Source: Elusimicrobiota bacterium
GTDB taxonomy: Bacteria > Elusimicrobiota > UBA8919
DNA: 63,799 bases
Assembly: GCA_016218625.1 (NCBI GenBank)
Contig: JACRDL010000045.1
Span: forward strand, 1 to 63,799
Reading direction: 5' to 3'
Positions 27,056 to 59,100 of this stretch are shown piece after piece (within the stretch, counting starts at the first letter, position 1; every line of letters starts with the position of its first letter). The notes beneath the pieces were generated by a model. The model saw only the letters and a list, made by a program, of their open reading frames with translations, was not told the origin of the DNA and did not search any database. Position numbers and translations under genes: made by a program.

Positions 27056-27057
27056 AA

Positions 27058-27187: not shown

Positions 27188-27200
27188 ACAAGGATTAAGA

Positions 27201-28112: not shown

Positions 28113-28114
28113 TA

Positions 28115-28178
28115 AGCCACAGAATTTCACAGAAAGGCACAGAAATAAATCTGTGTAAATCTGTGTTTATCTGTGGCT
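28115..28178. repeat. CACAGAA-word hairpin between rnfD and rnfG
   Basis: AGCCACAGAATTTCACAGAAAGGCACAGAAAT pairs with ATCTGTGTAAATCTGTGTTTATCTGTGGCT. Confidence 0.8.
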
Positions 28179-28191
28179 AAAAAGAAAAAAA

Positions 28192-29332: not shown

Positions 29333-29337
29333 TAAAA

Positions 29338-29462
29338 ACGATTTAGACAGATAAGAAACACGGATGAAAACGGATGGAGTCACGGATTCAGACAGATATA
29401 AATCCGTTTGCATCCGAAATAATCCGTCTGAATCTGCGTTTTTATCCGTTTGAATCGCTGTT
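29338..29462. repeat. ACGGAT/CAGACAGAT-word long hairpin between rnfE and rnfA
   Basis: About 60-nt arms. Starts AACGATTTAGACAGAT and ends GTTTGAATCGCTGTT. Same family as 31294-31410. Confidence 0.8.
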
Positions 29463-29465
29463 AAT

Positions 29466-30041: not shown

Positions 30042-30049
30042 GGGGGATA

Positions 30050-30499
30050 ATGCAAGTTAAAAGTGAAAGGTTAAAGGTTAAAATTTTATGGTTGGTTATT
30101 TTTATTTGCGAAATTTCACGCTATACAACTTTTTGCGAAGCAAAAAACGATTCCGAAATTGGCGTTATCATCGGAAAGCCCGTTGGTATTTCCGGAAAGT
30201 GTATGCTTTCAGAGAAGACCGCTATTGACGGTGTATTTGGTTTCGGCTCCGGTTTTATGGCACATTTAGATTACTTATGGCATGATTTTAATGCACTCAA
30301 AGTAAATGAAGGAAAACTTCCGTTTTATTACGGCGTCGGTGCTTTAGTCAGTGAAAAAAATTTTTGTGTTCAGGGAAAACTTGGTCTTGAATATCTTTTT
30401 GATACAAATCCGCTCGGTATATTTATTGAGATTGCGCCGGCCGTCGGGACCGATTTTATATTTCAAGGCGGTATTGGTGTAAGGTATCGGCTAAAATGA
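30050..30499 (+). CDS. small secreted beta-rich protein embedded between rnfA and rnfB
   Basis: GGGGGG Shine-Dalgarno, a signal peptide, Gly/aromatic-rich alternating strands, and an ATGA overlap with the rnfB start. Confidence 0.45.
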   Translation: MQVKSERLKVKILWLVIFICEISRYTTFCEAKNDSEIGVIIGKPVGISGKCMLSEKTAIDGVFGFGSGFMAHLDYLWHDFNALKVNEGKLPFYYGVGALVSEKNFCVQGKLGLEYLFDTNPLGIFIEIAPAVGTDFIFQGGIGVRYRLK

Positions 30500-31290
30500 G
30501 CGTTTTTATTGTTCCATTATTGGTTCTCGGTATATTAGGGCTTCTTTTGGGAATAGGTCTTGCAATTGCATCTAAAAAATTTGCTGTTAAAACCGACCCA
30601 AAAGTTGAAATTATTTTCGGGATACTTCCCGGTGCTAATTGCGGTGCCTGCGGTTTCGCCGGCTGTCTCGGTTATGCAAAAGAGATCATAGAAGGTAGAG
30701 CGAAAACAGGACTTTGTCCTGTCGGCGGCGAAGATGCATCAAAAAAAATCGCAGAGGTATTAGGTATTGAAATTAGTTCACGGCAGAAACTTGTTGCCCG
30801 TATTCACTGCGGTGGTGATATCTCAGAAAAAAGGCAGAGGGGAAATTATAACGGAGTAAGGACATGTCTGTCGGCAACGCTGGTTTCCGGCGGTACCGTT
30901 ATGTGCAGTTATGGATGTTTAGGTTTCAGCGATTGCGTAAGGGTTTGTCCTTTTGATGCAATAAAATCAAGAGAAAATTTACCGCCGGAAATTGATGAAG
31001 AAAAATGTACTGCCTGTGGGTTGTGTGTGAAATCATGTCCGAAAAATTTAATTAAACTCACACCGCTAGATAAAAGATTTTTAATTGCCTGCTCATCACA
31101 CGATAAAGGAAAAATTACAAGGCAAGTTTGCGATGTGGGCTGTATCGCCTGCGGACTTTGTATAAAAAAGTGTCCCGAAAAAGCATGCAATCTTGAAAAT
31201 AATCTTTCCAAAATTGATTACACAAAATGCAAAAATATCGGAGAATGTTTTAAGGCGTGCCCGACTAAATGTATCCAATGGAAGAGATAA
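30496..31290 (+). CDS. rnfB: Rnf complex subunit B
   Basis: N-terminal TM helix, CGACGFAGC cluster and several CxxCxxCxxxCP ferredoxin motifs. Confidence 0.9.
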   Translation: MSVFIVPLLVLGILGLLLGIGLAIASKKFAVKTDPKVEIIFGILPGANCGACGFAGCLGYAKEIIEGRAKTGLCPVGGEDASKKIAEVLGIEISSRQKLVARIHCGGDISEKRQRGNYNGVRTCLSATLVSGGTVMCSYGCLGFSDCVRVCPFDAIKSRENLPPEIDEEKCTACGLCVKSCPKNLIKLTPLDKRFLIACSSHDKGKITRQVCDVGCIACGLCIKKCPEKACNLENNLSKIDYTKCKNIGECFKACPTKCIQWKR

Positions 31291-41041: not shown

Positions 41042-43021
41042 ATGAAAAAGGAAATGATGATACGGTTATACGGTGATAAGATGATACGAATCAGCATATC
41101 AGCATATCAGCATATCATCGCAGTTTTTTCACTTACTTGCTTACTCGCTTACTCGCTTACTCGCTGTCTCTATGCTGCACCGTCGGGAAACATTCAACTT
41201 TCAATCGCTTCCCCTGACCCCGCCACTGCCGGTGAAAAAGTAACATTTCAGGTAATTGCATTGAATACGGGTAGTGAAAAATGGCTTTCCGATGAATATT
41301 ATATGGAAGCCGAGATTTATGATGCGCAAAAAAATTACATCAAAAAAACAGGGAAACTGAAAGTTAAAAATGATGTCAACACGGGTGAAACGGCGCTTGC
41401 CTATATTCCGTTTACCGTGCCGAGTTCTTTTTCCGGCGAGTATTTTTACAAAATTACTTTAACACTTAAAGAGCAAAGAATTATCGTCTCCGAGTATCTT
41501 CCTTTTACCATAGTTGAACTTGCCCGCCCCCTTCAACCGGAAAAAAAAGTTACCGTCGGCGGTAATGCCATTCTTTCATGGAAACAATCGCAAAAAAAAT
41601 ATGAGGTAGACAGTTCTTCATCCGACTACAACGGTTCTCTCAATTTGAATTTGGTTGGCAATGTCTATCAAACGCCGGTTTCGCTGAATGTTTATGCGCT
41701 CTATACGAAATCAGATCAATTTGACCTTGACAATTTTCTTTTTAATTATTACGGGAAAAAAATTCAGGTCGCTTTCGGCGACATACAGCCGTCATATAAT
41801 TCGCTTACATTATATGGTGCGGGAATCCGCGGTTTGAATATCACAGGAACAACAGGAAAATTTTCCGCATCCATCGTCGGTGCCCAGTCGGCGGAAAAAG
41901 AGGAAGGGACGGACACTGCCAACGGCATCTACGAAAGGTATCTATACGGCGGAAAAATAAATCAGGGCTTCACCGAGATGAACACCGTTTTAGGCGGCTC
42001 ATATATTGAAAGCAAAGATAATGAAAATTCTATTGAAAGACCCGGTACAACCCTTCCCGTTAAAAATACCGTTATCGGCGGTGATGTATATTTTGAACCC
42101 ATTGATTTTTTAGGAGTGAAAGGCGATTACGGGCAATCGGAGTACTGGGAGGATATTTCGTCAGGTTCAGTTAAGGACTCCGGCATCAGAGCGACGATTT
42201 CTTCCGTCAATGTTAAAAACTTTTCATTCACGGGAATATACTCAAAAATAGAACCGGATTTCAACTCGCTTGGTGCCCCCGCTTCCACAAAAGACAAGGA
42301 ATCATATGAACTCTCAACCGGGTATTCTCTGGAGCGTTCCTGTTCGCTTTCCGTCTATTTCAACAATTATCATGATAATTTGAACAAGGATCCGAGCAAG
42401 ACAACTACAACTCAAAATCTCGGAAGTGTTACATTGGCAACCGGCATTCCGAAATATCCGGTTTTGACTCTGGGTTATTCCATGAATATAGCGAAAGGCG
42501 ATCCGATAAACGCTCTTAACAATGAAACAAAAACGCCGTCGGTTGGAATTTCTCACACGATAAAAATGACGACACTTTCTTTAAATGCCCAGCAGTCAAA
42601 ATTCAAAGATAAAACCAGTGTCTCATCCGATTTAAAAACTGACACGGGAAATCTCGGATTTTCAACACGCATCGGAGAGAATATTTCCGTTTCCGGCGGT
42701 ACCACGCTCTCTAAAACATTAAATATTGCTTCATCAACGGAAACCGCAACTGGCTCATATTCACTCAACATAAATTATCTCAACATCATAAAAGATAAAC
42801 TCTCCGCCGCAATGTGGGGTTCTTATACGACTTCTCTTGATAAACCGATGCAATCAACGGATAATATAAACACGACCGGCACCGTTGAGTTGACATACAA
42901 CCTTCGTCAAAATCTTTCCGCCACACTCGGCTATACGCTCGCCGACTATAAAGACGATATTTCCGTAGTAAACAGTTATAAAGAAAATTCCGGAAATATC
43001 CGGCTATCAATGAGTTTTTAA
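41042..43021 (+). CDS. putative outer-membrane beta-barrel protein with an N-terminal Ig/CARDB-like domain
   Basis: Signal peptide ending CLYA. An Ig-like ~110 aa domain (GEKVTFQVIALNTGSEKW), then ~500 aa of alternating beta pattern. Terminal ...IRLSMSF. Confidence 0.55.
   Translation: MKKEMMIRLYGDKMIRISISAYQHIIAVFSLTCLLAYSLTRCLYAAPSGNIQLSIASPDPATAGEKVTFQVIALNTGSEKWLSDEYYMEAEIYDAQKNYIKKTGKLKVKNDVNTGETALAYIPFTVPSSFSGEYFYKITLTLKEQRIIVSEYLPFTIVELARPLQPEKKVTVGGNAILSWKQSQKKYEVDSSSSDYNGSLNLNLVGNVYQTPVSLNVYALYTKSDQFDLDNFLFNYYGKKIQVAFGDIQPSYNSLTLYGAGIRGLNITGTTGKFSASIVGAQSAEKEEGTDTANGIYERYLYGGKINQGFTEMNTVLGGSYIESKDNENSIERPGTTLPVKNTVIGGDVYFEPIDFLGVKGDYGQSEYWEDISSGSVKDSGIRATISSVNVKNFSFTGIYSKIEPDFNSLGAPASTKDKESYELSTGYSLERSCSLSVYFNNYHDNLNKDPSKTTTTQNLGSVTLATGIPKYPVLTLGYSMNIAKGDPINALNNETKTPSVGISHTIKMTTLSLNAQQSKFKDKTSVSSDLKTDTGNLGFSTRIGENISVSGGTTLSKTLNIASSTETATGSYSLNINYLNIIKDKLSAAMWGSYTTSLDKPMQSTDNINTTGTVELTYNLRQNLSATLGYTLADYKDDISVVNSYKENSGNIRLSMSF
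41055..41165. repeat. composite word repeats (GATACGG, CAGCATAT x3, CTTACTCG x3) encoding the leader peptide
   Basis: Read directly. Encodes MIRLYGDKMIRISISAYQHIIAVFSLTCLLAYSLTR. Confidence 0.85.
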
Positions 43022-43082: not shown

Positions 43083-44522
43083 ATGAAACTAAAATCGGGA
43101 AGTGGGAAGTGGTTTGTAGCGGGCGAATTGCTATTCGCCATATTTTGTGGGATAGCAATCCCACCGCTACTCCCTACTCCCTGTCTTTACGCTCAAAAAG
43201 AATCAAAGACATCAATTGAAACCAAAATTGCCATTGAATCAAGCATGGAGAACCGTCTGAAAAAGGTCCTGACCGAAATAACCGGCACCGAAAAAATCGT
43301 CATCATAGTAAATGTCCAGTTGATGAGCGAAAAAAAGGAAAAAGCGCCTGCTAAAAAAGAGGATGAAATGTTTCTTCCCGGAGTTCCCATAAAAGAAACA
43401 CTTGCCGAAAAAAAGGTTGAGTCGGTTATGATGTCCGCACTTGGCGACGACACCAGGACGCTCATCAAAAAACTTTCGGTCACTATTATACTTGATAAAT
43501 CCGTATCTTCCGCAGTGGTTGAAATAGTAAAAAAAGTTTCATCGGGCCTTCTGGGGATTGAACCGGAGAGAGGCGATGAACTTAAAATTGAGCAGATGAG
43601 TTTTCATAAAGATATTTTTTCGTGGAGTTCGCTTATTTATCCGCCGAATATCTACTGGATTTTTGCTGTCTTGGCAGCACTCGGCTTTACCTTAACGATT
43701 TCACTGTTTTTGTTCGGACCTTTCCAGAAATTTGCCAAAGACCTTGTTTCTGCGGCTGTCAGTTCGGCGTCATCATTTAAGGAAAAGACATCGGAAGCAT
43801 CAGGCGGCTTTGCGACTGGTGCGGCAATTCCGGAAATAGCCGCCCCGGCGGAAACAAGAAAGGAACTTACGGCTTCCGGCAAAGAGCCGCTTTTTTCGTT
43901 TGTCAATTCCGAGAACATAAAGGAACTTGTTTATCTTCTCAAAAACGAATCAGCAAAAAATATAGCAATCGTTATGAACTATCTGACATCGGAATTATCA
44001 GCCCGAATTTTTACCGAGCTCCCGAAGGATATAAAGAAAGATGTCGTCGGTTTTTTGTCCAAGGTGGAGGAACTTACTCCGTCGGAGGTTGAAAAATTAG
44101 AAAACCATCTTAAAATAAAAATTGATTTTCTTTCAGGCGGAGAGGAAAAAATACGGGATATTGTAAATAATGCCGACGAGAAACTTCAAGGCGAAATTAT
44201 TTCCGAACTAAAAACCAAAGACCCGAACCTTGCCCAAAAAATTGAAAAATCAATCGTTCGTATTGACATTCTTTCTTCTATGGATGTGTCTGGTTTGCAA
44301 CTTTTAATAAAACAGGCGGGGACTGCCGTATTCGGACAGATACTGAAAGTTTTGCCCGCCGAGCAGCAGGAAAAAGTGTTTTCCGTTTTGCCGGCCGGAG
44401 CCGCTACCCGCTTGAAACAGGAAATGGAATTGGGAAAATCAATAACACCCCAGCGGCTTGAAATTGAGAAAAAAAGAATGCTGGATATTATTCGTAGGAT
44501 GAAAGAGAGAGGACTGATATGA
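43083..44522 (+). CDS. FliF-like ring domain / TM / FliG-like (middle plus C-terminal domains) fusion protein
   Basis: GGGAGGG Shine-Dalgarno. Periplasmic MENRLKKVLTEITGTEKIVIIVNVQL and KKLSVTIILD...PERGDELKIEQMSF are YscJ/FliF-like. TM helix YWIFAVLAALGFTLTISLFLF. The cytoplasmic half aligns by eye with FliG_M/FliG_C. Confidence 0.65.
   Translation: MKLKSGSGKWFVAGELLFAIFCGIAIPPLLPTPCLYAQKESKTSIETKIAIESSMENRLKKVLTEITGTEKIVIIVNVQLMSEKKEKAPAKKEDEMFLPGVPIKETLAEKKVESVMMSALGDDTRTLIKKLSVTIILDKSVSSAVVEIVKKVSSGLLGIEPERGDELKIEQMSFHKDIFSWSSLIYPPNIYWIFAVLAALGFTLTISLFLFGPFQKFAKDLVSAAVSSASSFKEKTSEASGGFATGAAIPEIAAPAETRKELTASGKEPLFSFVNSENIKELVYLLKNESAKNIAIVMNYLTSELSARIFTELPKDIKKDVVGFLSKVEELTPSEVEKLENHLKIKIDFLSGGEEKIRDIVNNADEKLQGEIISELKTKDPNLAQKIEKSIVRIDILSSMDVSGLQLLIKQAGTAVFGQILKVLPAEQQEKVFSVLPAGAATRLKQEMELGKSITPQRLEIEKKRMLDIIRRMKERGLI
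43098..43183. repeat. GGGAAGT-word arms enclosing a 55-nt three-way-junction palindrome (inside the signal-peptide coding region)
   Basis: GTAGCGG (43116-22) pairs with CCGCTAC (43164-70). They enclose hairpins GCGAAT-tgct-ATTCGC and GTGGGAT-agca-ATCCCAC. Confidence 0.8.
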
Positions 44523-44733
44523 CCACAGAACAGACACGGAAGCCCCCGCTTAAAGCGGGGGACACGGAACAAACACGGAACTGGTGCGGAATGTCATTGC
44601 GAGGAGTGAATGAAATGAACGACGAAGCAATCTCATGGGATTGCCACGGGACTTTGTCCCTCGCAATGACAACTTCGTTGTCAGTTTAGTGTCAGTTCTG
44701 TGTACAAGTTCCGCTTCAGTTCCGTGTAAGGAG
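44523..44733. repeat. composite element: CACGGAAC-word arms, a GC hairpin, and a nested GTCATTGCGAGG palindrome
   Basis: GCCCCCGCT-taa-AGCGGGGG (44541-61). GTCATTGCGAGG...CCTCGCAATGAC (44593-44670). Right arm GTTCCGCTTCAGTTCCGTG. Confidence 0.8.
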
Positions 44734-44743: not shown

Positions 44744-45517
44744 ATGGATTTAATGACTTTATGCGGGTTTCTTATCGGCGGCGGTGCCGTCTATTATGTA
44801 ATGGTTCAGGGAAATATTGTAAATCTTCTTTTAGACCTTAACGCCGCAATACTTGTATTCGGCGGCACGCTCGGCGCTGCACTGATTACATATCCATGGA
44901 AAATAGTAAAAATTATTCCGAAAGCGATAACGATGATGATTTTTCCGCCCAAAAGGATAAGCAACGATACGGCTGTAAAAACTATTGTTTCGCTTGCCGA
45001 AAAATCAAAGCGGGAAGGAATTGAAAAGTTGCAGGAAGAAATTCCAAAATTAGAAACACCGTTTTTAAGGGATGCTCTGCAGATGGTTGTTGACGGTTTG
45101 GAGACGGAAATTATCAAGGAAAAACTTGAAAAGGAACTTTCGCTTGTCCGCCAGCGTCACCATCAGGTTTCATCAATTTTTCGTTCAATGGGAGCGTATT
45201 CGCCTATTTTCGGACTGTTGGGAACGCTGATTGGTGTCGTTCAGGTTTTAAGAAATCTTTCAGATGCCCAATCAATGGGCGCTGCAATGGCTATCGCGGT
45301 GACCACGACATTTTACGGAATTTTCGGCGCCAATTTTTTATTTTTACCGATAGCGGGAAAACTTACCATTTATTCCGAGGATGAAATTACGCTGAAAGAA
45401 CTTCTTGCGCGGGGCGTTTTATCAATTCAAAAAGGAGATGTCCCTGTTTTAATTCAGACGAAACTTGAAGCATTTCTGGCGTATAAGTTGCGTGGAAAAG
45501 AAGGAGAGAAAAAGTAA
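44744..45517 (+). CDS. motA: flagellar-type stator protein MotA/PomA
   Basis: 257 aa, 4 TM helices, a cytoplasmic charged loop, and conserved prolines in AYSPIFGLLGT and LFLPIAGKL. AAGGAG Shine-Dalgarno. Confidence 0.85.
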   Translation: MDLMTLCGFLIGGGAVYYVMVQGNIVNLLLDLNAAILVFGGTLGAALITYPWKIVKIIPKAITMMIFPPKRISNDTAVKTIVSLAEKSKREGIEKLQEEIPKLETPFLRDALQMVVDGLETEIIKEKLEKELSLVRQRHHQVSSIFRSMGAYSPIFGLLGTLIGVVQVLRNLSDAQSMGAAMAIAVTTTFYGIFGANFLFLPIAGKLTIYSEDEITLKELLARGVLSIQKGDVPVLIQTKLEAFLAYKLRGKEGEKK

Positions 45518-45584: not shown

Positions 45585-46241
45585 ATGGCTCAACGAAGAG
45601 AAACAGATTCTCAGGAAGGTAATATCTGGACAACCGTATATTCGGATATGGTGACCAATCTCATGCTTTTTTTTCTGATGCTATACGGCTTGACTCGAAT
45701 GTCAGCCGATATGCGCAGCGATATCACAAAAGGGCTTGAAAAAAAATTCCGCGGCGCAACCTCTGCGGAAGTCCGTGCGGAAAAGGTGGTAAAAAAATTC
45801 ACCGAAGAAGAAACCGCCTCAAAGGTCAGCGATCTTGCTCAAAGCGAAAAATCGGAATATACATCCGTTGAAATAAACGAGAAACAAATCAAAATTATTC
45901 TTAATTCCCCTGTGCTTTTTTCACCCGGAAGCGCCGAGTTGCCCGATGCAACAAAAATCGCGCTGAATGATGTGGCAAGAATTATTAAACCCGTTCCCAA
46001 TACGATAATAATAGAAGGGCACACCGATGATATGCCGATTTCCAGAGGGCAATACTCAACAAACTGGGAACTTTCCGTGGCGCGGGCTTACAGCGTTATT
46101 GAATATTTCGTCAAAATTAAAAATATTCCTGCCGGCAGGTTTGTCGCGGCGGGTTACGGCGAGTTTAAAGCGATTGCGGGAAACGAAACCGAAGAGGGCA
46201 GGGCAAGAAACAGAAGGATTGAAATTGTGATGGTACGGTGA
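45585..46241 (+). CDS. motB: stator protein MotB (OmpA-like peptidoglycan-binding C-terminus)
   Basis: NIWTTVYSDMVTNLMLFF carries the channel Asp (D21, 45645-47). IIEGHTDDMPI...RARNRRIEIVM is the OmpA domain. Confidence 0.8.
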   Translation: MAQRRETDSQEGNIWTTVYSDMVTNLMLFFLMLYGLTRMSADMRSDITKGLEKKFRGATSAEVRAEKVVKKFTEEETASKVSDLAQSEKSEYTSVEINEKQIKIILNSPVLFSPGSAELPDATKIALNDVARIIKPVPNTIIIEGHTDDMPISRGQYSTNWELSVARAYSVIEYFVKIKNIPAGRFVAAGYGEFKAIAGNETEEGRARNRRIEIVMVR

Positions 46242-46291: not shown

Positions 46292-46666
46292 ATGAGCAAA
46301 CTTTTATATGAGAGCGAGTCATATATTATTCGCGGTGTGGCATATGATATCTACAAGAAATTCAGGAATAGACATAAGGAAAAAGTTTATCAGAGTGCTT
46401 TTTATTATGGTCTTGTAAATAAGGGACTTAAAACGGAAAAAGAAAAAAGAATTGAGGTGAATTTTGATGGCAGAAAAGTCGGGACATATATACCGGATTT
46501 AATTGTGGAAGATAAACTTATGATAGAACTCAAAGTTAAACCGGAAATAACATCCGAAGATATAAAACAGTTCTGGTATTATCTTAAAAATTCAGGATAT
46601 AAAGTAGGTTTTCTAATAAATTTTGGCAGGTCTGATGGAATTAGAATAATCCGCAGAGTTCATTAA
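46292..46666 (+). CDS. GxxExxY-family (PD-(D/E)XK-like) protein
   Basis: 124 aa. EKVYQSAFYYGLVNKGL, YIPDLIVEDKLMIELK and GFLINFG match the GxxExxY family pattern. Confidence 0.75.
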   Translation: MSKLLYESESYIIRGVAYDIYKKFRNRHKEKVYQSAFYYGLVNKGLKTEKEKRIEVNFDGRKVGTYIPDLIVEDKLMIELKVKPEITSEDIKQFWYYLKNSGYKVGFLINFGRSDGIRIIRRVH

Positions 46667-46712
46667 AGTTCCGCTTCTGTTCCGTGTATAAGTTCCGTGT
46701 CAGTTCAGTGGT
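46667..46712. repeat. GTTCCGTG-word right arm flanking the GxxExxY gene
   Basis: AGTTCCGCTTCTGTTCCGTGTATAAGTTCCGTGTCAGTTCAGTGG. TTCCGTGTCAGTTC is the exact complement of GAACTGACACGGAA upstream. Confidence 0.8.
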
Positions 46713-46716
46713 ATTT

Positions 46717-47475
46717 ATGGATAAAGATTATTTTCAGGAAGACAGTGATATAATTGCGGCGATTGAAGGCGGCGAGGATTCGCAGAAAACTTCAAAACCC
46801 GAAGGTGAAAAATCCGAAAGTGAACATCGCGATCATTTTATTTCCACTGATTCATGGGTAATTCCATATGCCAATCTTATGACGATTTTGATGATTTTCT
46901 TTATGATACTTTATGCTTATGCCATTTTGTACGGCGGCGGCGCCCGATATGAAAAAGCAATGGCATCTATTCAGAAAGGCGTTGCTACGGGTAGCGAACA
47001 GTTAAAAAAAATAGAAACGCTTGAAAAAGAGGCGAATGCCGGAACGCAGATGGAGGATTTCATCAAGGAAAAAAATCTTTCCGAATATGCAAAGGTAGAA
47101 ACAAACGCCCAGAGAATAAAAATTTCTCTGTCAAATCCGATATTGTTTGACAGCGGTTCCGCGGAACTTAAAAGTGCCGCAACTCCTGCATTAAAAGAAA
47201 TAGCCCAGTTAATTCTCACTATGGAAAATCCGATTATTGTTGAAGGACACACCGACGATGTTCCTATTTCTTCGGCGAAATACCGTTCCAATTTTGAACT
47301 TTCTGCCGCGCGGGCGTTCAGCGTTATAAATTATTTCATCAACATTGAAAAAATATCCCCGGAAAGATTTTCCACATTCGGTTACGGCGAATACAGGCCG
47401 GTCGTCTCAAATGATACCGAAGAAAACCGTGCAAAAAACAGAAGAATTGAGATTAACATTATAAGAAAAACATGA
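46717..47475 (+). CDS. MotB paralog with Asn in place of the channel Asp
   Basis: SWVIPYANLMTILMIFF (N53, AAT 46873-75). IVEGHTDDVPI...RAKNRRIEINI is the OmpA domain. ATG 46717 is preferred. Confidence 0.75.
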   Translation: MDKDYFQEDSDIIAAIEGGEDSQKTSKPEGEKSESEHRDHFISTDSWVIPYANLMTILMIFFMILYAYAILYGGGARYEKAMASIQKGVATGSEQLKKIETLEKEANAGTQMEDFIKEKNLSEYAKVETNAQRIKISLSNPILFDSGSAELKSAATPALKEIAQLILTMENPIIVEGHTDDVPISSAKYRSNFELSAARAFSVINYFINIEKISPERFSTFGYGEYRPVVSNDTEENRAKNRRIEINIIRKT

Positions 47476-48392
47476 AAAAAGAATCGTTGATACGGTTATA
47501 TGCTTATATGCTGATACGATTTTTACATATCATCGTATTACCGTATTACCGTATTACTGTAGTTGTTTTACTACTTATCACCGTATCATCTTATCACCGT
47601 ATCACCTGCCTTTATGCACAGGAAATTTCCACTCTCTATCAGGATGCGATGACGGCGTTTTACAAAAAGGACTACAAAAAAGCGATTTCACTCTGGGAAG
47701 AGGTATTAAAAGTTGACCCAAGGCAAAAAAATCCGCAGAAACTTATAGAGATGGCTCGCTCAAAAATGGCGGAGAATATAAAGCCGCTCACCGACGAATT
47801 CAACAAATTTTTGGAAAGGGGCGAATACCTTCAATCAGTGGAAAAACTGGACCAACTTCTGGAACTTGACCCTACAAATCCAACTTGGCAGAGTTACAGA
47901 GAAAAACTTCAGAAGTTCACGGTGAATGTTGCACCGTCAATTACGGAGAAGGGAAAAATCCCTCAACTTTTAAGAAAAAGCGTCAACAGTTATTTAGGCA
48001 GAGAAAAAGACGACCGTATTGCCGTTCTTGCCTCCCGTTACGCGTGGCAACTTGAAAAATCAAATAAACTTTCTGAAAAGGTTTTTCTTTTTATGGACAA
48101 GGAGTTCTCGGTGGTCGCCCGGATTGAGGTTATTGACAGGGTGAAGACCGTTGTTGAGCAGAAGCAGGATACGATTTTGGATGCGATTTACGACGGTAAA
48201 TACGAATACGCCAAAATGGAATGCGAACTGGTAATATCAATTGAGCCGGAGAATGCTCTCGCTTGGAAACGGCTCGGCTCGGTGTATTATGCTCTCGGAA
48301 AAAGAACTGATGCAAAGGCGTGCTGGCAGGAAGCGATGAGAATTGCACCCGATGACTCCGAAACAAAAAAATTTTTACAGAAAATCAAGTGA
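47472..48392 (+). CDS. secreted TPR-repeat protein
   Basis: Leader ends CLYAQ. TPR units (AFYKKDYKKAISLWEEVLKVDP; AWKRLGSVYYALGKRTDAKACWQEAMRIAP). ATGA overlap with upstream. Confidence 0.65.
   Translation: MKKESLIRLYAYMLIRFLHIIVLPYYRITVVVLLLITVSSYHRITCLYAQEISTLYQDAMTAFYKKDYKKAISLWEEVLKVDPRQKNPQKLIEMARSKMAENIKPLTDEFNKFLERGEYLQSVEKLDQLLELDPTNPTWQSYREKLQKFTVNVAPSITEKGKIPQLLRKSVNSYLGREKDDRIAVLASRYAWQLEKSNKLSEKVFLFMDKEFSVVARIEVIDRVKTVVEQKQDTILDAIYDGKYEYAKMECELVISIEPENALAWKRLGSVYYALGKRTDAKACWQEAMRIAPDDSETKKFLQKIK
47487..47608. repeat. GATACGG/GTATTACC-word palindromic repeats encoding the leader peptide
   Basis: Shares TGATACGGTTATA (direct) and ACGGTGATAAGATGATACG (inverted, 47582-47600) with the leader of ORF 41042. 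Confidence 0.85.
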
Positions 48393-50158: not shown

Positions 50159-53100
50159 ATGAAAAATAGTATGAAAACCAGAACCGTCCCGATAATTTCC
50201 CTTTGTAGTCGCAGAGTTTACTCTGCTTTCTTGTCATTGCGAGCGATAGCGAAGGTTGTCATTGCGAGGGCGAAGCCCGTGGCAATCTCTGTGTTTGTTC
50301 TGCGTCAGTTCCGCGTTCTGTTCCGCGTCTGTTCAGCGGTCTTAATAATTTCCTCCGTCCCCATTAGTTTATATGCTTGGGTAAAATATTCGGGAAATCC
50401 TATCCTGATTCACGAAAATGTTGGGGCACGGTTTCCAACAACGCTGAAAGAAAATAATACATATTATCTATTCTATGGCGAGTTAAATGTTGGCGACAAT
50501 GCAATGTGGGTAAACCTTGCAACTGCAACTGCTGTTACAGGTCCATATGGCAAATATGGAACCGTTCATAATATAAATTTACAAACATGGATGTCCCATG
50601 CTGTTTATCCCGGGTGTGTGCTTAAAGTTGCAACAACTTACTTTATGTACTATCATGGTGATGATGCGAACCTTGACCCCAACCGATATATCGGGGTTTC
50701 TACAAGTACGAATCTGTACAACTGGTCACCACATTATAATAATCCTGTCTTAAGTACAGGCCTCGCGGGGTCGCCAGATTCTCAAATGGCTACAAATCCA
50801 AGTGTAATCTATAAAGACAGCCAGTTTATTATGTGGTATATTGGTTATAATGGAAGTGTTAATTCGGTATGTCGTTCAACCTCAACAGATGGATACAACT
50901 GGGAAAAATATTCAGGAAATCCTGTTCTTTCCCCAAACGGTGAGGAAGTAAATATAGAAGATGTTAGTGTTATATTTGATACCGCAACCGCAAAATACAG
51001 AATGCTTTACGACAAAGCAGATAATAATATAAGATATGCAGAATCTACTGATGGTATAAACTGGGTGAAAAAATCCAACAATCCTGTTTTGGTGGGCGGA
51101 CCATCAGCATGGGATGCTCAAAGATCAGTCATGGCAAATTTTCTTAAAGATGCTACTACTGGTTATGTAATGTGGTATTGGGGATACCCTAACGAAGATA
51201 TTGGTTTTGCTAATAATCCCGAACCTGATGCTATTACAAATCTTTCAGCACTTACAGGTCAAAATTTTAATGAGATAAAATTAAGTTGGACAAGTCCTGG
51301 CGCTAATTATGATTTGGACTCACTTCCATCAGGCAGTCAATACAAAATTCAGTACTCATCATATTCGATTAATTGGTCAACTGCTTCAGCCAATCTTACC
51401 ATTTCAACTTCTGCTGTTTCGCCAGGAAGTTTACAATCATATACCCTAACCGGTTTAATAGGAGGGGCAACTTATTACATTAGAATTTGGACAGGCGATG
51501 AAACACCAAGTTGGTCTGACCTATCTAATGATGCAACTGCACAAGCAAAACCTGACAACACACCACCGGCGGGGATTAGTAATTTGACCGCGTTAAAGGG
51601 AGCGAATGCGGGACAAATTGTTTTACAATGGACATCGCCAGGTGATGACGGAACGGTCGGCAATTTAACGGGGCAGTTTGAAATTGAATACACCACAGGC
51701 GGAATAATAACGAACGCCAATTATTATTCTCCGCCGCCGCAAATGACATCAATAAGTATTTCAACGAGTAATCTTGCACCGCTGACCGCATGCACCACAA
51801 CGCTTTACAACTTGTCGCCAGGGGCGACATACTACTTTGCAATCAAGTCAAAAGACGATGTCAACAACATATCGGTTTGGAACTCCTCTGCGGATGTTTC
51901 AGGCGTCAACACCGCCGCCTTCCTTTATATACCGTTCATTGCCAAATCAATGTTTACCGGGAATTGGAATGTTCCGGGCACATGGGAAGGGAATGCGGTT
52001 CCGTGGGCAAATCAGGGAGTAGAAATTAAAAGCGGTAATACAGTTACTTTTAGCACGACTAATGCGTCGGTTACTTGCTCAACACTTACAATTTTGGGAA
52101 CTTTGCAGTTTGACGGAGCGGTTGCCAATCGGTCAATGGTTGTAGCGGGTAACATTGACATCCAGAATGGAGGTCAATTTTTGATGCCGCCGAATACGGG
52201 TTATATTTCAACACTGAAAATCAGGTGCGATACTGCCGGTCAGTATGGAATAATCGTCAATAACGGCGGAAAGTTTGATGTTCAGGGCAACACCACAACA
52301 ACGCCATCAACGAGAAATTGCCTAATCGCATCAGACAACCCGTCATACAAAACATACATCCGAAACCTTTCACTAACAGAAGCAAATTTTAATATGTATT
52401 ATGTAGAAGTAAGCAGCGTTGGAGTGGATGCTACATCAAAAGGGGGAATAACTTTTGATGGTGCCGGAACAAGAGGAAAAATCAATTATTGCAGTATTCA
52501 TAATGGGTATATTGGCATTTATCTTAACTCCAGTTCCAGCAACACAATAAGCAATAACAATTGTTACTCAAATACTCAATATGGCATTTACTTTTACAAC
52601 AGTTCCAACAATACAATAAGCAATAATAGTATCTATGCAAATTCTTATTATGGCATTTATTTTTACAACAGTTCCAACAACACTATAAGCAATAACAGTT
52701 GTTACTCAAACTCTCAAAATGGCATTTACATTGATTCCAGTTCCAACAATACTTTGAACAATAACAGTTGTTATTCAAATACTCTATACGGCATTTACTT
52801 TGTTGGCAGTTCTAATAACATAATGAGCAATAACAATTGTTACTCAAATGCTCAAAGTGGCATTGTTTCAGGTAATAATTCCATAAATAATACAGCAGTG
52901 AAATGTGAATTGAGCAATAACACAAATAGTGATATTCAGTATATCAATGGTTCTGTTTCCAAACTAACCTTAAAAAATTGTAATTTATATTCTTCAACGA
53001 AAGTCAATACGACAGGAATAAATACTGCGGGGTCATATCTTGTTTCGTATAATCAGGACGGGACACAGGGGACGACGAAGATTTGGGGCGATTACCATAT

Positions 53101-56100
53101 TGGAACAGGGCAAGCCCTGTCACTCCAGAAATTCAATTACGCAGAACCCTTATATGTTTCAACCGCAACCCTGCCGAATTCTACATTATCAGGCACCGGT
53201 TCAATTACATATCCGACGACTATTAGCAGTCAAACGCTGACAGAATTCTGGGAAGTGAAATTTAATGGGTCGTCTTTTGATGTCCGAAGAGGAACTTGGT
53301 CTGTTCTTACAAATGATGGCACGGCATCTGCTGCAGGAGTGCCTTATACAAGCACAACAAGAGGAGTGAGTTTTGCAGCAAACGGCACTTTCATATTAAA
53401 TGATGCGTTTTATTTTGTAACGATTTCTTCTTCCGCTGATATGAATGTTCAGAAAAAACTGGAATTCAGCGATTCGCCGATCGGGACAAAACTTACCGTT
53501 GATAACGGCGGGACAATCCAGATGCTCGGCACTTCTGCTAATCCCACAATTTCCACAAATGCAGTCGGAAGCACTTATTACGGATTTCAATCGTCAGGCA
53601 CGCTTAATTTGAGCAATTATGATATTTTCAATTTGAAATCATCCGGTCTGGAGATTTATCCGAATGCGAATGTCGTTGATTTAAGCACCGGCACTTTTGA
53701 TAACAGTCAGGGCGGCGCCGGTTCAAGTTGTATCAATGTGAACGGAATAACATCAAACAAGACATTTTACGGTTGTAAATTTAATGCTCCCGCGGACTAT
53801 AATGTCAAAGCCGATGGTGCGGGTATCAACTGGACGTTCCTCAACTGGTCGGGAGTAAGGGCGGGCGAAAATTATGATTATGAAACAAACGGAGCGCAAA
53901 TAAAATGGGATGCTACTCCGCCGACGATTACGGATTTGCAAGGCGGGGATGATGTTGTAAGGAACGCGGGGGGGACGGCTTATAATGTTGATTTTAATGA
54001 TAATGACAAGTTGGATACGATTCAATACAGGGTGACAACGCTGCCGTCTATTTCCGGCGGCGGAACGGAAATCATTCCGTGGACAAATATAGCGGTGAAC
54101 ATAGGAGCAAGCTCCTATACTACAGATTGGCAGGTTAATTTTGCGGCACTTCAATCGCTTCCAACCACCAACTATGTTTCCGTTCGCGTCTGGGATGTCG
54201 CAGGAAATACTACAACTGTCAACGATGTTTTTTATGTGATGAAAGACACCGTTCCGCCGACCTCCGGGGTTTCAAGTCCTGTTGATGCTATAAATGTGCA
54301 AACGCTTACAACAATTTCCGGCACCTGTGCTGATAATTACAGTGTAGGTAACGTTAATATACAGATAAAACGATTTTCAGATGGGCAGTATTGGGATGGT
54401 GTTAGCAAAGTTTGGACTACTGTTATGTGGAATGCTGCTTCTTCAACTTATCCATCATGGTGGACATATACGCCTCTTACCGATGCATATCTTACACCCG
54501 GCACATCCTACCAGATTCGTACTTTTGCAGTTGATACCTTAAATAATAATGAAACACCCGGTGCCGGCATCACATTCACATATAAAACGAAAAAAACGAT
54601 TTCATCTGGCAACTGGACAGATGCTGCGACATGGTCAGGCGGACAGCAGCCGCTTGATGGCGATGCGGTCTTTCTAAAACCGTCGTGGGCAGTAACCTTA
54701 AATGCCAACACATCCAACCTTTATTCTTTGACGATAGAAGACGGTGCGAAACTTGGCAATACAAGTTATCAAATCAACATTTCCTCCTTTGACGGCGGCG
54801 GGATTTATAATTATGGGACGCTTGATTATAATACATCCGGTGCTCTTAATATGAAAGGAAACAAAGTTGTCGTGTCAACGGCCACCAGCCAGCAGATATG
54901 CAATGATTTTTATGTTCTTACCGGTGCGACAATTACTCTTCAGTCGGACATCACTGTCGGCGGTATCAGAATTGAAAATGGCGGGAAACTGGATTCAGCC
55001 AGCAAACAAATCACACTAAAAACAGGCAGTTGGAACATGCTAAGCGGAGGAACATTTTTAGCGGGGTCATCAACGGTGACATTCGCCGGAGGAACGGGGT
55101 CCCCTCAGGACATCAATTTTCTCAGCAACTTACCTCAAAACTTCGCCAATTTAAGAATCAATAATGGCTTTTCCGTTGTCCCATATGGGGCACTTGACAT
55201 CAATGGAGACTTTACGATTCAGAGCGGAACATTTGTCGCAGGTAATTTTGAACACTTTATTTCAAGCAATTTCACTCAGACCGGCGGCGGGTTTGAAGCG
55301 AACACATCCACAATAACATTTGACGGTTCAGGATTACGAACAATTTCTGTATTAGCAGGCACTTCTTTCTACTGTTTAAAAAATACAGGAATCACCGGTA
55401 GTACTTTGAGACCGCTTTCTAATTTAGATATAAACGGTGATTTTACGCACGCAGGGACGGGTTCGTTTGATTTTGGAAACTATACTTATAATTTTGCAGG
55501 TAAAGTTTCTGTATTATCCGGCGCGAGTTATGGCGGAAGTTCTAAATGGATATATGACGGCATAACACAACAAATTGGTCACACCAGTGGAGATATCATT
55601 ATTGTAAAAAATCCCGCCGTATTAAAATTTACTGCAACACCATTGCTCAGATCTATTAATATAGACCCGGGCTGTTCAGTTGATGCAACAGGACTAAATC
55701 TGCAACTTCGAGAAAGTTTCACCAGTTCGGGAACTTTTATAAATAGCGGCTCAACAGTAACATTTGAGACATATTCTGGTAATGGGTCAATCTGGACAGT
55801 GGCGTCATCAACATTTAATAACGTAACGATACAGAAACCATCAATAACTGATATCGTGACCGCACTTACTTCTTTAAATATCGGCGGGTGGCTGAAAGTT
55901 AATTCCGGCACACTTAATATGGGTTCTACAATTCATACGATTCAAGGCAATACAACCATCAGCGGTATTCAGTCACGGCTGGACATCGGCTCGTCCACGA
56001 CTACGCTTGTAGGTGCGGTTAATGTGCTGAACGGAGGCACGCTTTTACTACCTAATGCCACACCCAACCCTGTTCTTAAACTCGGAGTGCCGGGAGCAAA

Positions 56101-59100
56101 TTATCTGAATGTTGACAGCGGCGGATTTTTCATTTCGCAATCATCAAATAATTTAATTACTTCAACCAATCCCGGCGGCACACGATACACATTCAAGTGC
56201 TATGCTTCCACTCTCAACATAACAGGCGCTACTTTTGAGTCGCCATGTTGGGAGGATGACGCACTGTTTATATCAAGCGATACAAAAATTGTCAATTTGA
56301 ACAATGTGAACTTTAAATCATTAGTATCAACAAGTAGGGCGATTACACTTGGTTATACAACTATTCCGGGAACTTTTACATTCACCGGACATCAGTTTGA
56401 TTCAACTGTGAATACAAATGTTAATGCACCTAATTTAACCAGCGGAATTGTAGTGATGCAGGATGCAACCGGTGCAAAAGCAGGCGCTGCCTACGAATGG
56501 GACAATAACGACAGGGTTTTCTGGCAGCCGGGCGATTCAATTTCGGTTGTTAAACCGGCCGGCGGCGAAATTTATGTGGTTGGGACATCAACGCCGATTT
56601 TGTGGAATACAAATGGGTCAATCAAAAATGTCCGACTTGAGTATTCAAAAGACGATTTCGCCACAGCGGGTATTTTTATAGCGAATGTGTCAACCTCGGC
56701 GAGTTTCGGAAGTTACAACTGGACAATTCCGAATGATGTTTCAGCCACTGTGAAGGTTCGCGTATCTGCATTGAATTATTCTGCGATATACAGCAATTCA
56801 ACTTCAAACTTTACAATCCAGCAACCCGTTGCGGCGCCGTCAAATCTGAAGGTCTCGTTATTAGGCACGACATCAATCCAGTGGCAGTTCACGGATAATG
56901 CTACAAATGAGACAGGGCTGTATATTTCCAGCGGCGCAAATGTTTCAATGCGGCTGTCAAATAATTTAGGACCATTGACCGGCACCGGCTTAACGACGAG
57001 TTGGTTTGAAATAAATCTTTCAACAAATACTCAATACACAAGGTATGCGGAAGCGGTCAATGCCGGCGGAAGCAGTTGGTCAGCCGTAATTTCATCATAC
57101 ACCGCTGCGGCTGTGCCGAAAGGGACAAAAATAATTGCCCGCTCATCATACAGCGTAGAACTTGATTGGCAGCCGAACGGCAACCCTGAACCCGGTACCG
57201 GTTACGATGTCTGGTCTTCAAGCGTATCGGACTTTTATAATTACACAGCTGTAGGTGCTTCAACAACATCTTATGTCGTTGCCAATTTATTGGCAAACAC
57301 AACATACTATTTCAGAGTTCATGCAATGAATGAGGATTTGGTTCAAACTGATGATGATATAACAATATCAACTCAAACACTTAAGGCACAGGCGTCAAAA
57401 CTTGTGGTGGTTGCGCCTGGCGAGACATTTACGGATGGTGTAGGCAAAGCGGGGGCACCGACGAGCCAAACAGCGGGGGTTTCATTCACAATCACAGTTA
57501 ATGCTGTTGGGATTACTAACTGGATAGACCCGACAGCAAATCAGATAACAACCGTAACGACAACAGATAATTACGACACGGAGCCGATAAATCGGCAACT
57601 ACAGAACGGGACAACAACATTTGATATAACGCTTGTAACGGCGAAGGTGTCGTCGGTAACTGCGAGTGCAACCGGGATTACTGCCGGCAGTTCGTATCTT
57701 AATGTAGTTGCTGGGTTACCCAGCAAATTACAAGTGCTCGTTCCCGGTGAAACAGTAGTTTCTGGCTCTGCAACAGGTAAGACGGGCACACCGAACAATC
57801 AGCAATCAGGCGCCGCTTTCAATATCACAGTGAATGTTGTTGATAGTTATTGGAATCTTGTTACCTCAACACAGCCGACGGTTAAAATTGTAACAAGCGA
57901 CCCGGTGGATACAGAGCCGATAAATCGGCAACTACAAAACGGCACAACCACATTCATGGTAACACTTATTACACTTGGCAATACGACAATCACAGCGAGT
58001 GATGTAAGTTCTACATTAACACAGGATATTTCACCGAGTATAACAGTGAATACGGAAAGCACGCCGCCGACGGTGGCGATAATAGAGCCGGCAAACAATT
58101 CTTACAAAAACTCACTTACCTCAATTTCCGGCACTGCTGCGGATAATGTTTCCGTGTCGTCGGTAACGATACGGATAAGTGATGGTTCGCAGGATTGGGA
58201 TGGTGTTAGTGCGTGGACAGTACCATCAATATGGCTTGGTGCGACGCTGTATCCATCTTCATGGACTTATACAAGTGTTCCTTCTTGGGTGAGTGGTTCA
58301 TCATATACAGTAATAGCAAAATCAAAGGATTCATCAGACAACTGGTCCACTGCATACTCTACAAATACATTTACATATGATACAACTGCGCCGACATCTG
58401 CGGTAGTAAATCCTGCGGATGGTTCTACAATAAGTTCGCTTGGCACGATTTCGGGGACAGCAACTGACAATGTAGGGCTGAACAAGGTAGAGGTCGCATT
58501 TATGCGACTTTCTGATAATCAATACTGGACAGGTGGTGCTGGTTGGAGTGTAGAGACATGGCTATCAGCGACGGGCACAAATCCGTGGCAATACACAGGG
58601 ATTACAAATGGTGATTTAACCGATAACACATCATATCAAATAATAAGCAAAGCAACTGATTTAGCGAACAATGTTGAAACACCTGGAGCTAGAATCAAGT
58701 TCACATACTTACAACCACCGAATGCACCGACTGCATTTACAATTTCAGATAGAGGCACAAATTATCTGTACTGGGGTTGGTTTGATAATTCAACTAACGA
58801 GTCAGGGTTCAGGTTAAGGAATTCAACAGGCGGATTAGTAGCGGAGTTATCAGTGAATACGACATATTATCTTGAGAGCGGGCTATCTGTGAATACTTCA
58901 TACTATCGTTATGTGGAATCATATAATGCAAATGGAAGCAGTGCAAGCACTGCGGCTACATATTATACATCAGCCAATCCACCTTCAGGAACCTCTGTGG
59001 TCTCTGTGTCCTCTGTGGTGATTTCGTTGACTTGGTCATCAAATAGCAATCCTGCTTGGACTGATTTCTTTGTGCAGCGGGCAACGAGTAGTGATTTTGG

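Follow-up and report, generated by a model that had tools for sequence, protein, structure and literature searches.

We analysed a 63,799-nt stretch of DNA, contig JACRDL010000045.1 of the Elusimicrobiota bacterium assembly GCA_016218625.1 (hereafter, the window), in which one gene encodes a FliF-type ring-building domain and a FliG-like region in a single chain and is followed by genes for flagellar-type stator proteins. In a preceding interpretation made from the DNA letters without database searches (hereafter, the sequence-only reading), the open reading frame (ORF) at 43083-44522 had been described as a natural FliF-FliG fusion with a drastically shortened periplasmic domain, and the ORF and its translation were found as described. 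The gene and its parts are listed below; RBM denotes a ring-building motif domain, ARM an armadillo repeat domain, TM transmembrane and pLDDT the predicted local distance difference test score of the AlphaFold model.

43083-44522, forward strand: FliF/FliG fusion gene, first-ATG ORF of 479 residues
43083-43193, forward strand: probable cleavable signal peptide, residues 1-37 (ending CLYA, before QKE), with a basic n-region, a hydrophobic core and a small-x-Ala site
43206-43607, forward strand: single FliF RBM3-type ring-building domain, residues ~42-175, in the order alpha, beta, ~42-residue insertion, beta, alpha, beta (AlphaFold, profile A2, Pfam and Foldseek)
43647-43715, forward strand: TM helix, residues 189-211, N-out/C-in (hydrophobic stretch IYWIFAVLAALGFTLTISLFLFG, model helix 189-211, Lys-rich C-terminal flank)
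43716-43892, forward strand: juxtamembrane helix and disordered Ser/Ala-rich linker, residues 212-270 (model helix 214-236, then pLDDT <50 at residues 235-262)
43893-44135, forward strand: FliG middle domain (ARM_M and helix MC) with a degenerate EHPQR motif, Glu alone kept (PF14841, 1lkv and 4fhr alignments, E. coli FliG mapping)
44136-44522, forward strand: Gly-Gly linker (G352, G353) and FliG_C with the torque helix (K422, G439, R443, K445, Q446, E447, E449), then the stop codon (PF01706, residue mapping, Foldseek)

Domain architecture of the fusion protein

The C-terminal half of the fusion protein was found to be FliG-like. Pfam profiles located FliG_M (PF14841) at residues 281-348 (E 6e-12, 46 bits) and FliG_C (PF01706) at residues 375-479 (E 9e-18, 65 bits), and among PDB sequences, the middle and C-terminal domains of T. 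maritima FliG (FliG-MC; 1lkv) aligned with residues 271-478 with an E value of 1.2e-20; 4fhr was also aligned to the middle domain. This match is far above chance and covers the roughly 210 residues for which a resemblance to FliG had been proposed. When the AlphaFold model of the fusion protein was compared with known structures by Foldseek, FliG-MC structures were top-ranked, with E values of 2e-8 to 4e-6. The absence of a FliG N-domain, also proposed earlier, was borne out, as the sole FliG_N match in Pfam (16.9 bits; cutoff, 25) lay over residues 292-374 in the middle and C-terminal region and represents an ARM cross-match. In NCBIfam, the whole-protein FliG model TIGR00207 reached 77.1 bits (cutoff, 226.7) and covered model positions 109-324 of 338. 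Having neither the N domain nor the EHPQR motif, and scoring under this cutoff, the fusion protein would not be classed as a FliG equivalog.

MgtE_N also matched the fusion protein, at 29 bits compared with 65 and 46 bits for the FliG domains; this is the usual cross-match of FliG ARM repeats, and an identity as an MgtE-type Mg2+-sensing protein was rejected. The chlamydial NCBIfam model PRK05934 scored 23.2 bits (cutoff, 297), with residues 276-322 alone aligned to model positions 291-337.

The N-terminal half was compared with PDB sequences by using a profile, A2, made from an alignment of residues 37-216 with the equivalent parts of 20 relatives. At E <0.01, FliF and its structural cousin SpoIIIAG alone were matched. 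In particular, the RBM3 chain of FliF 9yh6 matched profile positions 16-138 (E 8.5e-5), Vibrio FliF matched over residues 418-492, corresponding to the second half of RBM3 and TM2 (E 9e-4), Salmonella FliF matched over residues 241-280, the first half of RBM3 (E 5e-3), and SpoIIIAG matched over residues 47-89 (E 7.5e-3). The NCBIfam model spore_III_AG also matched the fusion protein (E 0.002). Two motifs singled out in the sequence-only reading were found in these alignments: MENRLKKVL...VNVQL, taken there as a YscJ/FliF ring-building motif, aligns with the Salmonella FliF and SpoIIIAG segments, and the KKLSV...RGD...F block, assigned to the end of the FliF periplasmic region, aligns with the Vibrio segment and with model positions 97-147 of YscJ_FliF_C (PF08345). 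This Pfam model scored 20.8 bits over residues 128-174 of the full-length protein (gathering score, 23.8), and the isolated periplasmic domain passes at 24.1 bits. The model matched 21/21 family members (best E 1e-7), with relatives reaching 43 bits, the score of the divergent relative L031, in which the whole model was covered.

The AlphaFold monomer model of the fusion protein was built on 33 homologs (mean pLDDT, 77), and its periplasmic elements were helix 42-67, strand 73-82, strand 126-138, helix 143-157 and strand 166-172, with a low-confidence insertion at residues 84-124. This order is that of the alpha-beta-beta-alpha-beta ring-building motif with an insertion between strands 1 and 2, as in FliF RBM3 and SpoIIIAG. 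The ~42-residue collar insertion holds an LPGVP motif that is conserved in the family alignment. Salmonella and Vibrio MS-ring/RBM3 chains ranked after FliG-MC in Foldseek (E values from 1e-3 to 1e-2; target TM-score at most 0.59), and both halves of the protein were thus recognised by profile as well as by fold. RBM1/RBM2 (PF01514) gave no match at E <= 1 in Pfam, and the periplasmic region of the model has space for one domain only. Of the FliF periplasmic region, the third ring domain alone is present, in agreement with the drastic shortening described earlier; RBM3 is also the only element of the FliF definition in the protein, and neither the FliF-type pair of TM helices nor the FliG-binding C-tail was found.

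The sequence-only reading had placed a leader/TM segment at residues 1-38. The leader part of this claim stood, whereas retention as a TM segment seems doubtful, as residues 1-37 are probably a cleaved Sec signal peptide; the site pattern, [LVST]-x-A followed by Q/A-K and then E, is conserved in 33 homologs. The TM helix proposed further downstream corresponds to helix 189-211 of the AlphaFold model and is the sole membrane anchor. The Ser/Ala-rich linker, likewise recognised earlier, is disordered in the model and weakly conserved, and its length varies within the family. Together with the juxtamembrane helix, it occupies the position of the FliF C-tail and FliG_N, and FliG_M is joined to it directly. 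The covalent link would stand in for the contact between the FliF C-terminus and FliG_N, which the absence of FliG_N fits. The signal peptide and the single TM helix with its Lys-rich flank place RBM3 in the periplasm and the FliG part in the cytoplasm, and not outside it. The architecture is almost certainly FliF-RBM3, TM helix and cytoplasmic FliG-MC. The overall layout of ring domain, TM helix, linker and FliG that had been read from the translation therefore agrees with the profiles and the fold search.

The stator cassette and the rotor-stator interface

The genes surrounding the fusion gene in the window are as follows, where TPR stands for tetratricopeptide repeat and T9SS for the type IX secretion system:

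41042-43021, forward strand: outer-membrane protein of 659 residues with a signal peptide, an Ig-like beta-sandwich (residues ~51-158), a ~26-strand barrel and a C-terminal Phe (AlphaFold, pLDDT 71.6)
44524-44727, no strand assigned: nested palindromic element of ~205 nt that fills the interval separating the fusion and motA genes and does not belong to the machine (inverted repeats I1-I4)
44744-45517, forward strand: MotA, flagellar-type stator A subunit of the PomA/MotP-length class (9lu9 match, NCBIfam)
45585-46241, forward strand: MotB1 with a plug, a TM helix with the channel Asp (YSDMVT) and an OmpA peptidoglycan-binding domain (PF13677, PF00691)
46684-47475, forward strand: MotB2, a paralog in which the channel Asp is Asn (YANLMT) (PF13677, PF00691)
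47472-48392, forward strand: secreted TPR protein, last gene of the cassette, overlapping the MotB2 stop by 4 nt (TPR families in Pfam)
50159-60652, forward strand: giant surface protein of 3497 residues with G8, a right-handed beta-helix, 4 fn3 domains and, at its C-terminus, a T9SS type-A sorting domain (Pfam; TIGR04183, 31.6 bits, cutoff 23)
60649-62478 and 62456-63514, forward strand, after the giant gene: CARDB/CarboxypepD_reg protein of 609 residues and FecR-domain protein of 352 residues (Pfam)

Residues 1-246 of the window MotA aligned full-length with the solved flagellar MotA 9lu9 (E 7.5e-50). The NCBIfam flagellar motor protein models gave ~190 bits for this MotA, and the MotA and MotB scores lie under the equivalog cutoffs. 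The Thr-rich TM3/TM4 motifs of MotA may be PomA-like, which could point to Na+ coupling. The stator proteins show the features of the flagellar ion transporter (FIT) class defined in PMC12505986, namely the expanded cytoplasmic torque-generating interface in the A subunit and the plug and OmpA domain in both MotBs, with the channel Asp in MotB1 and Asn in MotB2. Across related loci (numbered with the prefix L), the channel Asp (E. coli D32) was distributed as follows:

Window and its clade: Asp in MotB1; Asn, Ser or Thr in MotB2
L003, L018 and L021: Gly, Ala or Cys in MotB1; Asp in MotB2
L001, L007, L022-L024 and L030: Asp in both MotBs

In no locus among the window and L001-L030 was the Asp missing from both MotBs. 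The simplest reading of this pattern would be a MotB1/MotB2 heterodimer inside one MotA pentamer, in which a single carboxylate suffices.

To describe the gene context, the window proteins were compared by phmmer with the ORFs of related loci, and precomputed gene tables were used. The order fusion gene, motA, motB1, motB2 and TPR gene was found in 19/19 distinct loci that were long enough, at 28-89% identity to the window protein, and the TPR gene was present in every related locus of sufficient length. In hmmsearch, both halves of the fusion were found in the protein at every related locus unless the contig ended inside the gene. A homolog of the barrel protein adjoins the cassette in 15 loci, in three arrangements: on the same strand it is found either upstream or downstream, and on the opposite strand it is downstream. 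In L036, the barrel gene and the five-gene cassette are flanked by unrelated housekeeping genes, and this isolated arrangement points to a minimal module of six genes. The barrel protein belongs to no family in Pfam or NCBIfam. Its best Foldseek match was the 26-strand barrel MtrB (E 1.7e-9; TM-score, 0.50), followed by generic large barrels (LptD, ushers and TonB-dependent receptors), and such matches alone allow no specific function to be assigned.

Some features of the window cassette stand apart from this conserved order. In other loci, the fusion and motA genes abut or overlap. The palindromic element that separates them in the window has a core 12-mer, GTCATTGCGAGG, which occurs in 5 copies in the window compared with 0.16 expected, those at 37088, 50233 and 50258 being among them; at 50233 and 50258, the 12-mer falls shortly after the annotated start of the giant ORF, whose true start may thus be further downstream. 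An ORF of 124 residues with a PD-(D/E)XK_3 domain (46292-46666) lies between motB1 and motB2 and is absent there in other loci. The leaders of the barrel (41042-41160), fusion (43083-43200) and TPR (47472-47625) proteins are long and end in ...C-L-Y-A-(Q/A), which may reflect a shared signal-peptide style or common regulation.

We mapped the residues of the rotor-stator interface onto E. coli FliG and MotA by using reference sequences from NC_000913.3, with family frequencies taken from 33 FliG-like and 24 MotA sequences:

E. coli FliG K264: K422 in the fusion protein; Lys or Arg in 32/33
E. coli FliG R281: G439; Gly in 32/33
E. coli FliG D288: Q446; Gln in 29/33
E. coli FliG D289: E447; Glu in 32/33
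E. coli FliG R297: T455; variable in the family

The replacement of R281 by Gly and of the D288/D289 pair by Gln-Glu, both read earlier by eye, was confirmed by this mapping. The Gly assigned to R297 was not, as R297 aligns with T455, and the Gly in this region, G451, aligns with R293. The torque helix has family-specific conserved charges at R443 (31/33), K/R445 and E/D449, and both residues of the Gly-Gly linker are invariant in the family. As the sequence-only reading had stated, NESAK occupies the position of EHPQ: E125 is kept as E289, H126 is replaced by Ser, Pro or Thr (Ser in the window), P127 by Ala or Pro (Ala), and Q128 by Lys or Glu (Lys), while R160 corresponds to Phe. In MotA, R90 corresponds to K89, with Lys or Arg in 23/24 family members, and E98 corresponds to Q97, a position at which the acid is not conserved (Gln in 12, Ala in 4 and Ser in 4 of 24); P173 and P222 are invariant. 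The HMMER alignment shows the same substitutions, with RREG...LE in 9lu9 and KREG...LQ in the window MotA. Two published accounts (PMC7564593, PMC12505986) give MotA R90 as the partner of FliG D289 in E. coli, and MotA E98 as that of FliG R281. In the family, the first pair is kept on both partners, and the second is lost on both, as would be expected if the neighbouring MotA acts on the FliG-like domain. The divergence of the stator-facing charges noted earlier is therefore real and is mirrored in MotA.

Distribution of the family and its giant neighbours

A word-indexed search returned 34 clusters of 449-515 residues and one 275-residue fragment, all with an identical layout; the named ones were from Elusimicrobiota or Endomicrobiales metagenome-assembled genomes (MAGs). 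With one genome taken per GTDB species, 27 loci were found, and their named MAGs were labelled Elusimicrobia, Elusimicrobiota, Elusimicrobiales or Endomicrobiales. An exhaustive HMMER search with the periplasmic profile was then made against 1.84 billion representatives (clusters at 50% identity) and matched 741 proteins when the cutoff was E <= 1e-3, 180 of them with E <= 1e-10 and 45 with E <= 1e-30. The family thus comprises at least 180 clusters at 50% identity that share the fused architecture proposed for the window gene. Among 150 matches listed, the domain lay mostly at residues ~25-210 of proteins of 450-800 residues, and 10/10 distant matches that were scanned keep RBM3, FliG_M and FliG_C, with a C-terminal TPR extension in 3/10. 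Many residues of the fusion protein are invariant in relatives down to 26% identity with it. The named members found by HMMER were Elusimicrobiota, except for one 4.9-kb contig binned as an archaeon, which is probably mis-binned, and no named cultured species was among the family matches. By the names attached to its members, the family appears confined to one phylum. This distribution, the conserved non-flagellar operon, the probable cleavage of the signal peptide and a natural precedent in Chlamydiaceae (PMC4768692) go beyond the sequence-only reading.

We also found that the cassette is linked with genes for giant proteins. Both the window and 12 related loci encode a giant secreted protein close to the cassette, in several gene orders. 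Where the C-terminus lies on the contig, the last ~90 residues of the giant form a T9SS type-A sorting domain (hereafter CTD, for C-terminal domain), with TIGR04183 scores of at least 23 bits in 8/8 cases. When distant subfamilies are included, 9/10 neighbouring giants pass TIGR04183; the remaining one aligns with the PorU/PorZ models over their CTD part. The window giant itself may belong to the motor system; type IX secretion is not a known trait of the phylum in which its sorting domain occurs. The order giant, CARDB/CarboxypepD_reg protein, FecR protein and fusion protein was found in three loci (L004, L012 and L013/L035). In L035, the cassette is followed by genes for an extracytoplasmic function (ECF) sigma factor, its companion class of anti-sigma factor and another FecR protein, which hints at regulation by surface signals.

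In the more distant subfamilies, the giants are larger. L037 encodes a protein of 16,931 residues (CTD, 25.8 bits), a TPR/PorV-like protein, the fusion protein, MotA, MotB, a protein of 824 residues and a PorV-like barrel. L038, from an Elusimicrobia MAG, encodes a protein of 14,454 residues whose C-terminus matches PorU/PorZ CTDs, followed by a TPR protein, the fusion protein, a protein of 800 residues, FlbD, MotA and two MotBs. In both loci (L037, 1-8090; L038, 1-7823), one TPR gene separates the giant gene from the downstream fusion gene, and in L034, two PorV genes and a CHU_C/CTD cargo gene lie a few kb upstream of the fusion gene. The fusion proteins of L034, L037 and L038 have an extra C-terminal cytoplasmic TPR region and are followed by a conserved protein of 800-830 residues, and PorV/UPF0164-like barrels, a PilZ protein (L037), a Roadblock/LC7 protein and FlbD are encoded nearby. 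A paralogous arrangement was observed in another Elusimicrobia MAG (L031, 8383-12858), where genes for a histidine kinase, MotA, the fusion protein, a coiled-coil-like protein of 472 residues and a single MotB are preceded by those for a YadA-like protein of 1338 residues and two Lcl_C proteins. NCBIfam gave nothing meaningful for the companion proteins of 472-830 residues in the distant subfamilies.

Core genes of flagella, type III secretion or T9SS were not found among the ORFs of the window in Pfam scans, which showed none of GldK/N, SprA, PorU, PorV or PorL/M; the genome was not searched for these. In ~35 loci, with flanks of up to 10 kb on each side, no flagellar structural or export gene adjoins the fusion gene, and no pil genes adjoin the cassette in the loci examined. 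The remaining window ORFs are housekeeping genes and an Rnf operon (Pfam), and tRNA and Rfam scans of the window found nothing. The Rnf operon (25703-31290) looks complete, with RnfC/D/G/E/A/B-like genes and ApbE upstream, and is a likely source of the ion gradient in this anaerobe. In a preprint, Uzun et al. reported that free-living Elusimicrobiota carry motAB and fliG without flagellar structural genes and encode type IV pilus genes, and they proposed a role for MotAB in twitching. In full-text searches of the literature, this was the sole mention of motAB/fliG in non-flagellated Elusimicrobiota, and no description of the fused architecture or of its link to giant proteins was found; the architecture is absent from papers dealing with the evolution of MotAB, with periplasmic force transducers and with giant genes, and a paper on groundwater Elusimicrobia does not discuss motility.

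A proposed envelope motor, its alternatives and its relatives

We consider the best explanation of the whole, favoured with some reserve, to be that the fusion protein is the single rotor subunit of a non-flagellar motor of the flagellar type. That the locus encodes a non-flagellar rotor-stator motor, with or without a ring, is quite probable. After cleavage of the signal peptide, the fusion would be a single-pass inner-membrane protein, and its periplasmic RBM3 domains would oligomerise into a ring, like RBM3 in the MS-ring and SpoIIIAG. The ring would display a circle of FliG middle and C-terminal domains on its cytoplasmic face, chained via the Gly-Gly linker region. Peptidoglycan-anchored stators would be formed by the adjacent MotA and, most likely, a MotB1/MotB2 heterodimer (MotA5-MotB1-MotB2), and ion flow through them would push the FliG_C torque helix and turn the ring; a true rotating ring seems somewhat likelier than a non-rotating arrangement. 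Lacking RBM1/RBM2 for an export gate, FliG_N and the EHPQR site for FliM, such an assembly would be a stripped-down MS-ring and upper C-ring and not a flagellar one. The work would probably be carried across the envelope by the TPR protein, which is secreted, and the outer-membrane barrel of ~26 strands. It would likely be directed at the giant CTD-bearing surface proteins, which would be secreted or moved on the surface, but giant proteins as the output of the motor are a tentative proposal, and a GldLM-like function is more speculative. The fullest form of the proposal, which is conceivable but doubtful, is a hitherto unrecognised envelope-spanning machine of Elusimicrobiota in which the one-protein FliF/FliG ring and MotA/MotB1/MotB2 take the GldLM/PorLM role. 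Via a dedicated barrel and the TPR adaptor, this machine would drive CTD giants of up to ~17,000 residues, either in their secretion, in their movement on the surface for gliding or for attachment to prey or substrate, or in both.

Several points weigh against this explanation. The ring and its rotation rest on inference, and a physical link between rotor and barrel is likewise not demonstrated. Similarity to RBM3 is modest, with E values of 1e-3 to 1e-5 against the PDB, and the full-length window protein stays under the Pfam gathering score; the RBM3 insertion at residues 84-124 has a pLDDT <50, and the model is a monomer. The barrel has no specific structural relative in Foldseek. The absence of flagellar genes is based on this window and one preprint and not on a genome-by-genome check. 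Finally, genes for proteins of at least 10,000 residues are frequent in Elusimicrobiota according to the giant-gene literature, such that part of the adjacency could be background, and L036 has no giant gene within 10 kb. The linkage with giants nevertheless persists through rearrangements and across subfamilies, which argues for a functional tie.

The same genetic evidence would be obtained from a TonB/TolA-like force transducer, in which one or a few copies of the fusion protein, rather than a ring, are pushed by MotA5B2 via FliG_C and pull via the TM helix and RBM3 on the TPR protein and the barrel. Outer-membrane barrel and periplasmic TPR partners are found in Ton/Tol-type systems, FecR and CarboxypepD_reg proteins are typical TonB-dependent companions and are frequent neighbours here, and ring formation is unproven. 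We consider a transducer unlikely, however, as RBM domains are ring-building in every solved match (FliF 33-35-mers by entry title, and SpoIIIAG), the periplasmic part of ~150 residues is too short to reach the outer membrane alone, and FliG's Gly-Gly linker is conserved. The ARM_M/ARM_C stacking by which FliG subunits are joined into a chain around the C-ring depends on this linker.

The proteins could also be the FliF and FliG of a real but reduced flagellum with its other genes elsewhere in the genome. The stators are genuinely of the flagellar type, FlbD, a small flagellar-operon protein, adjoins MotA in L038, and the search for flagellar genes covered the flanks of the loci and not whole genomes. 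Against these points stand the absence of RBM1/RBM2 for the export gate, of the FliM-binding motif and of FliG_N, the lack of flagellar structural or export genes beside the fusion gene in ~35 loci (<=10 kb flanks) and the reported absence of structural genes (Uzun et al.), which together make a reduced flagellum very improbable. Even less credence is given to the motor of a type IV pilus or twitching accessory system, a role that Uzun et al. suggested for MotAB of Elusimicrobiota: type IV pilus genes occur in the phylum, and a PilZ protein is encoded near the cassette in L037, but the cassette has no neighbouring pil genes in any examined locus, and the conserved partners are the barrel, the TPR protein and the CTD-bearing giants. 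A relic of a lost flagellum, with leftover rotor and stator genes of no or marginal present function, would account for a phylum reportedly without flagellar structural genes (Uzun et al.), for the loss of EHPQR, FliG_N and RBM1/2 and for the low TIGR00207 score (77 compared with 226.7). Yet at least 180 clusters at 50% identity share the architecture, many residues are invariant down to 26% identity, gene order is kept in 19 loci, the rotor and stator interface residues co-vary, and the torque helix has gained the conserved charges R443, K/R445 and E/D449. These observations indicate sustained selection, and the relic is the least credible of the explanations.

We compared the proposed rotor subunit with known systems. 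Flagellar FliF of Salmonella and Vibrio (6sd3, 8umd, 8z5v) likewise has an RBM3 that is interrupted between beta1 and beta2 by an insertion and, after this domain, a TM helix, and flagellar FliG shares ARM_M, the Gly-Gly linker, ARM_C with the torque helix, K264, the acidic D289 position and the MotA/MotB partners. The fusion differs in being one chain of 479 residues, compared with 552 and 331 residues for FliF and FliG in E. coli. It lacks RBM1/RBM2, the retained N-terminal TM helix and the C-tail of FliF, its collar insertion is ~42 residues long, and it lacks FliG_N, EHPQR, R281 and R297 of FliG. Export gate, rod, hook, switch and filament genes, which accompany these proteins in flagella, were not near the fusion gene.

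A natural FliF-FliG(M) fusion is already known from Chlamydiaceae (CT719 family; Bergeron 2016, PMC4768692) and is the closest natural precedent. Like the window family, it combines a FliF periplasmic region of reduced length with a TM helix and a FliG-like domain in the cytoplasm, and it occurs in a non-flagellated lineage of a group related to Planctomycetes-Verrucomicrobia-Chlamydiae (PVC). The chlamydial protein of ~330 residues, however, contains an RBM2-like domain and one RBM and the FliG middle domain only, has no stators and is thought to serve the injectisome, whereas in the window family RBM3 stands alone, the torque-generating FliG_C is retained and the gene shares an operon with MotA/MotB. 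In Salmonella and Vibrio, engineered or spontaneous fusions of FliF and FliG indicate that a covalent link is compatible with MS-ring assembly (PDB 8z4d/8z4g; PMC11481574, PMC10941966). Those fusions differ in joining full-length FliF and full-length FliG within a complete flagellum. The Salmonella FliF-FliG fusion mutants are reportedly motile.

Additionally, partial likenesses were found to machines outside the flagellum. SpoIIIAG, a weak profile match, forms a large ring and contains one RBM3-like domain, into which a beta-region is inserted, and a single TM helix, but its TM helix is N-terminal, and it has neither a cytoplasmic FliG domain nor stators. GldLM/PorLM of the Bacteroidota T9SS and gliding machinery resembles the window module as an ion-driven 5:2-type inner-membrane motor tied genetically to the secretion and surface movement of very large CTD adhesins with outer-membrane barrel partners. 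In contrast, GldL and GldM are not flagellar-class MotA/MotB, they have no FliG/FliF-like rotor, and GldM itself spans the periplasm. Myxococcus AglR, AglQ and AglS, like the window stators, combine one A-type and two B-type subunits in a non-flagellar system for surface movement; they are, however, members of the TolQR-like 'generic' class, which has no plug, no OmpA domain and no torque-generating interface (PMC12505986), and they have no FliG-like rotor.

Flagellar-class stators have been treated as a marker of flagellar motility (PMC12505986). The flagellar rotor-stator pair, regarded as flagella-specific, is conserved here in a phylum reported to be without flagella. If it rotates, the fusion protein would form the smallest natural flagellar-type rotor known, and the FliG-MotAB torque module could work without type III export, a switch complex or a rod. 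If true, this would bear on the evolution of the flagellar motor, in which the family could be an exapted remnant or a surviving pre-flagellar rotor, and it opens the question of which parts of the motor stand alone and in what order they were assembled. With the complementary loss of the channel Asp in the MotB paralogs, nature offers an experiment that asks whether both proton-binding sites are required in a 5:2 stator. The module of six or more genes has a fair chance of being a new kind of envelope machine, and its linkage with giant genes suggests a testable answer to how Elusimicrobiota export and use very large surface proteins.

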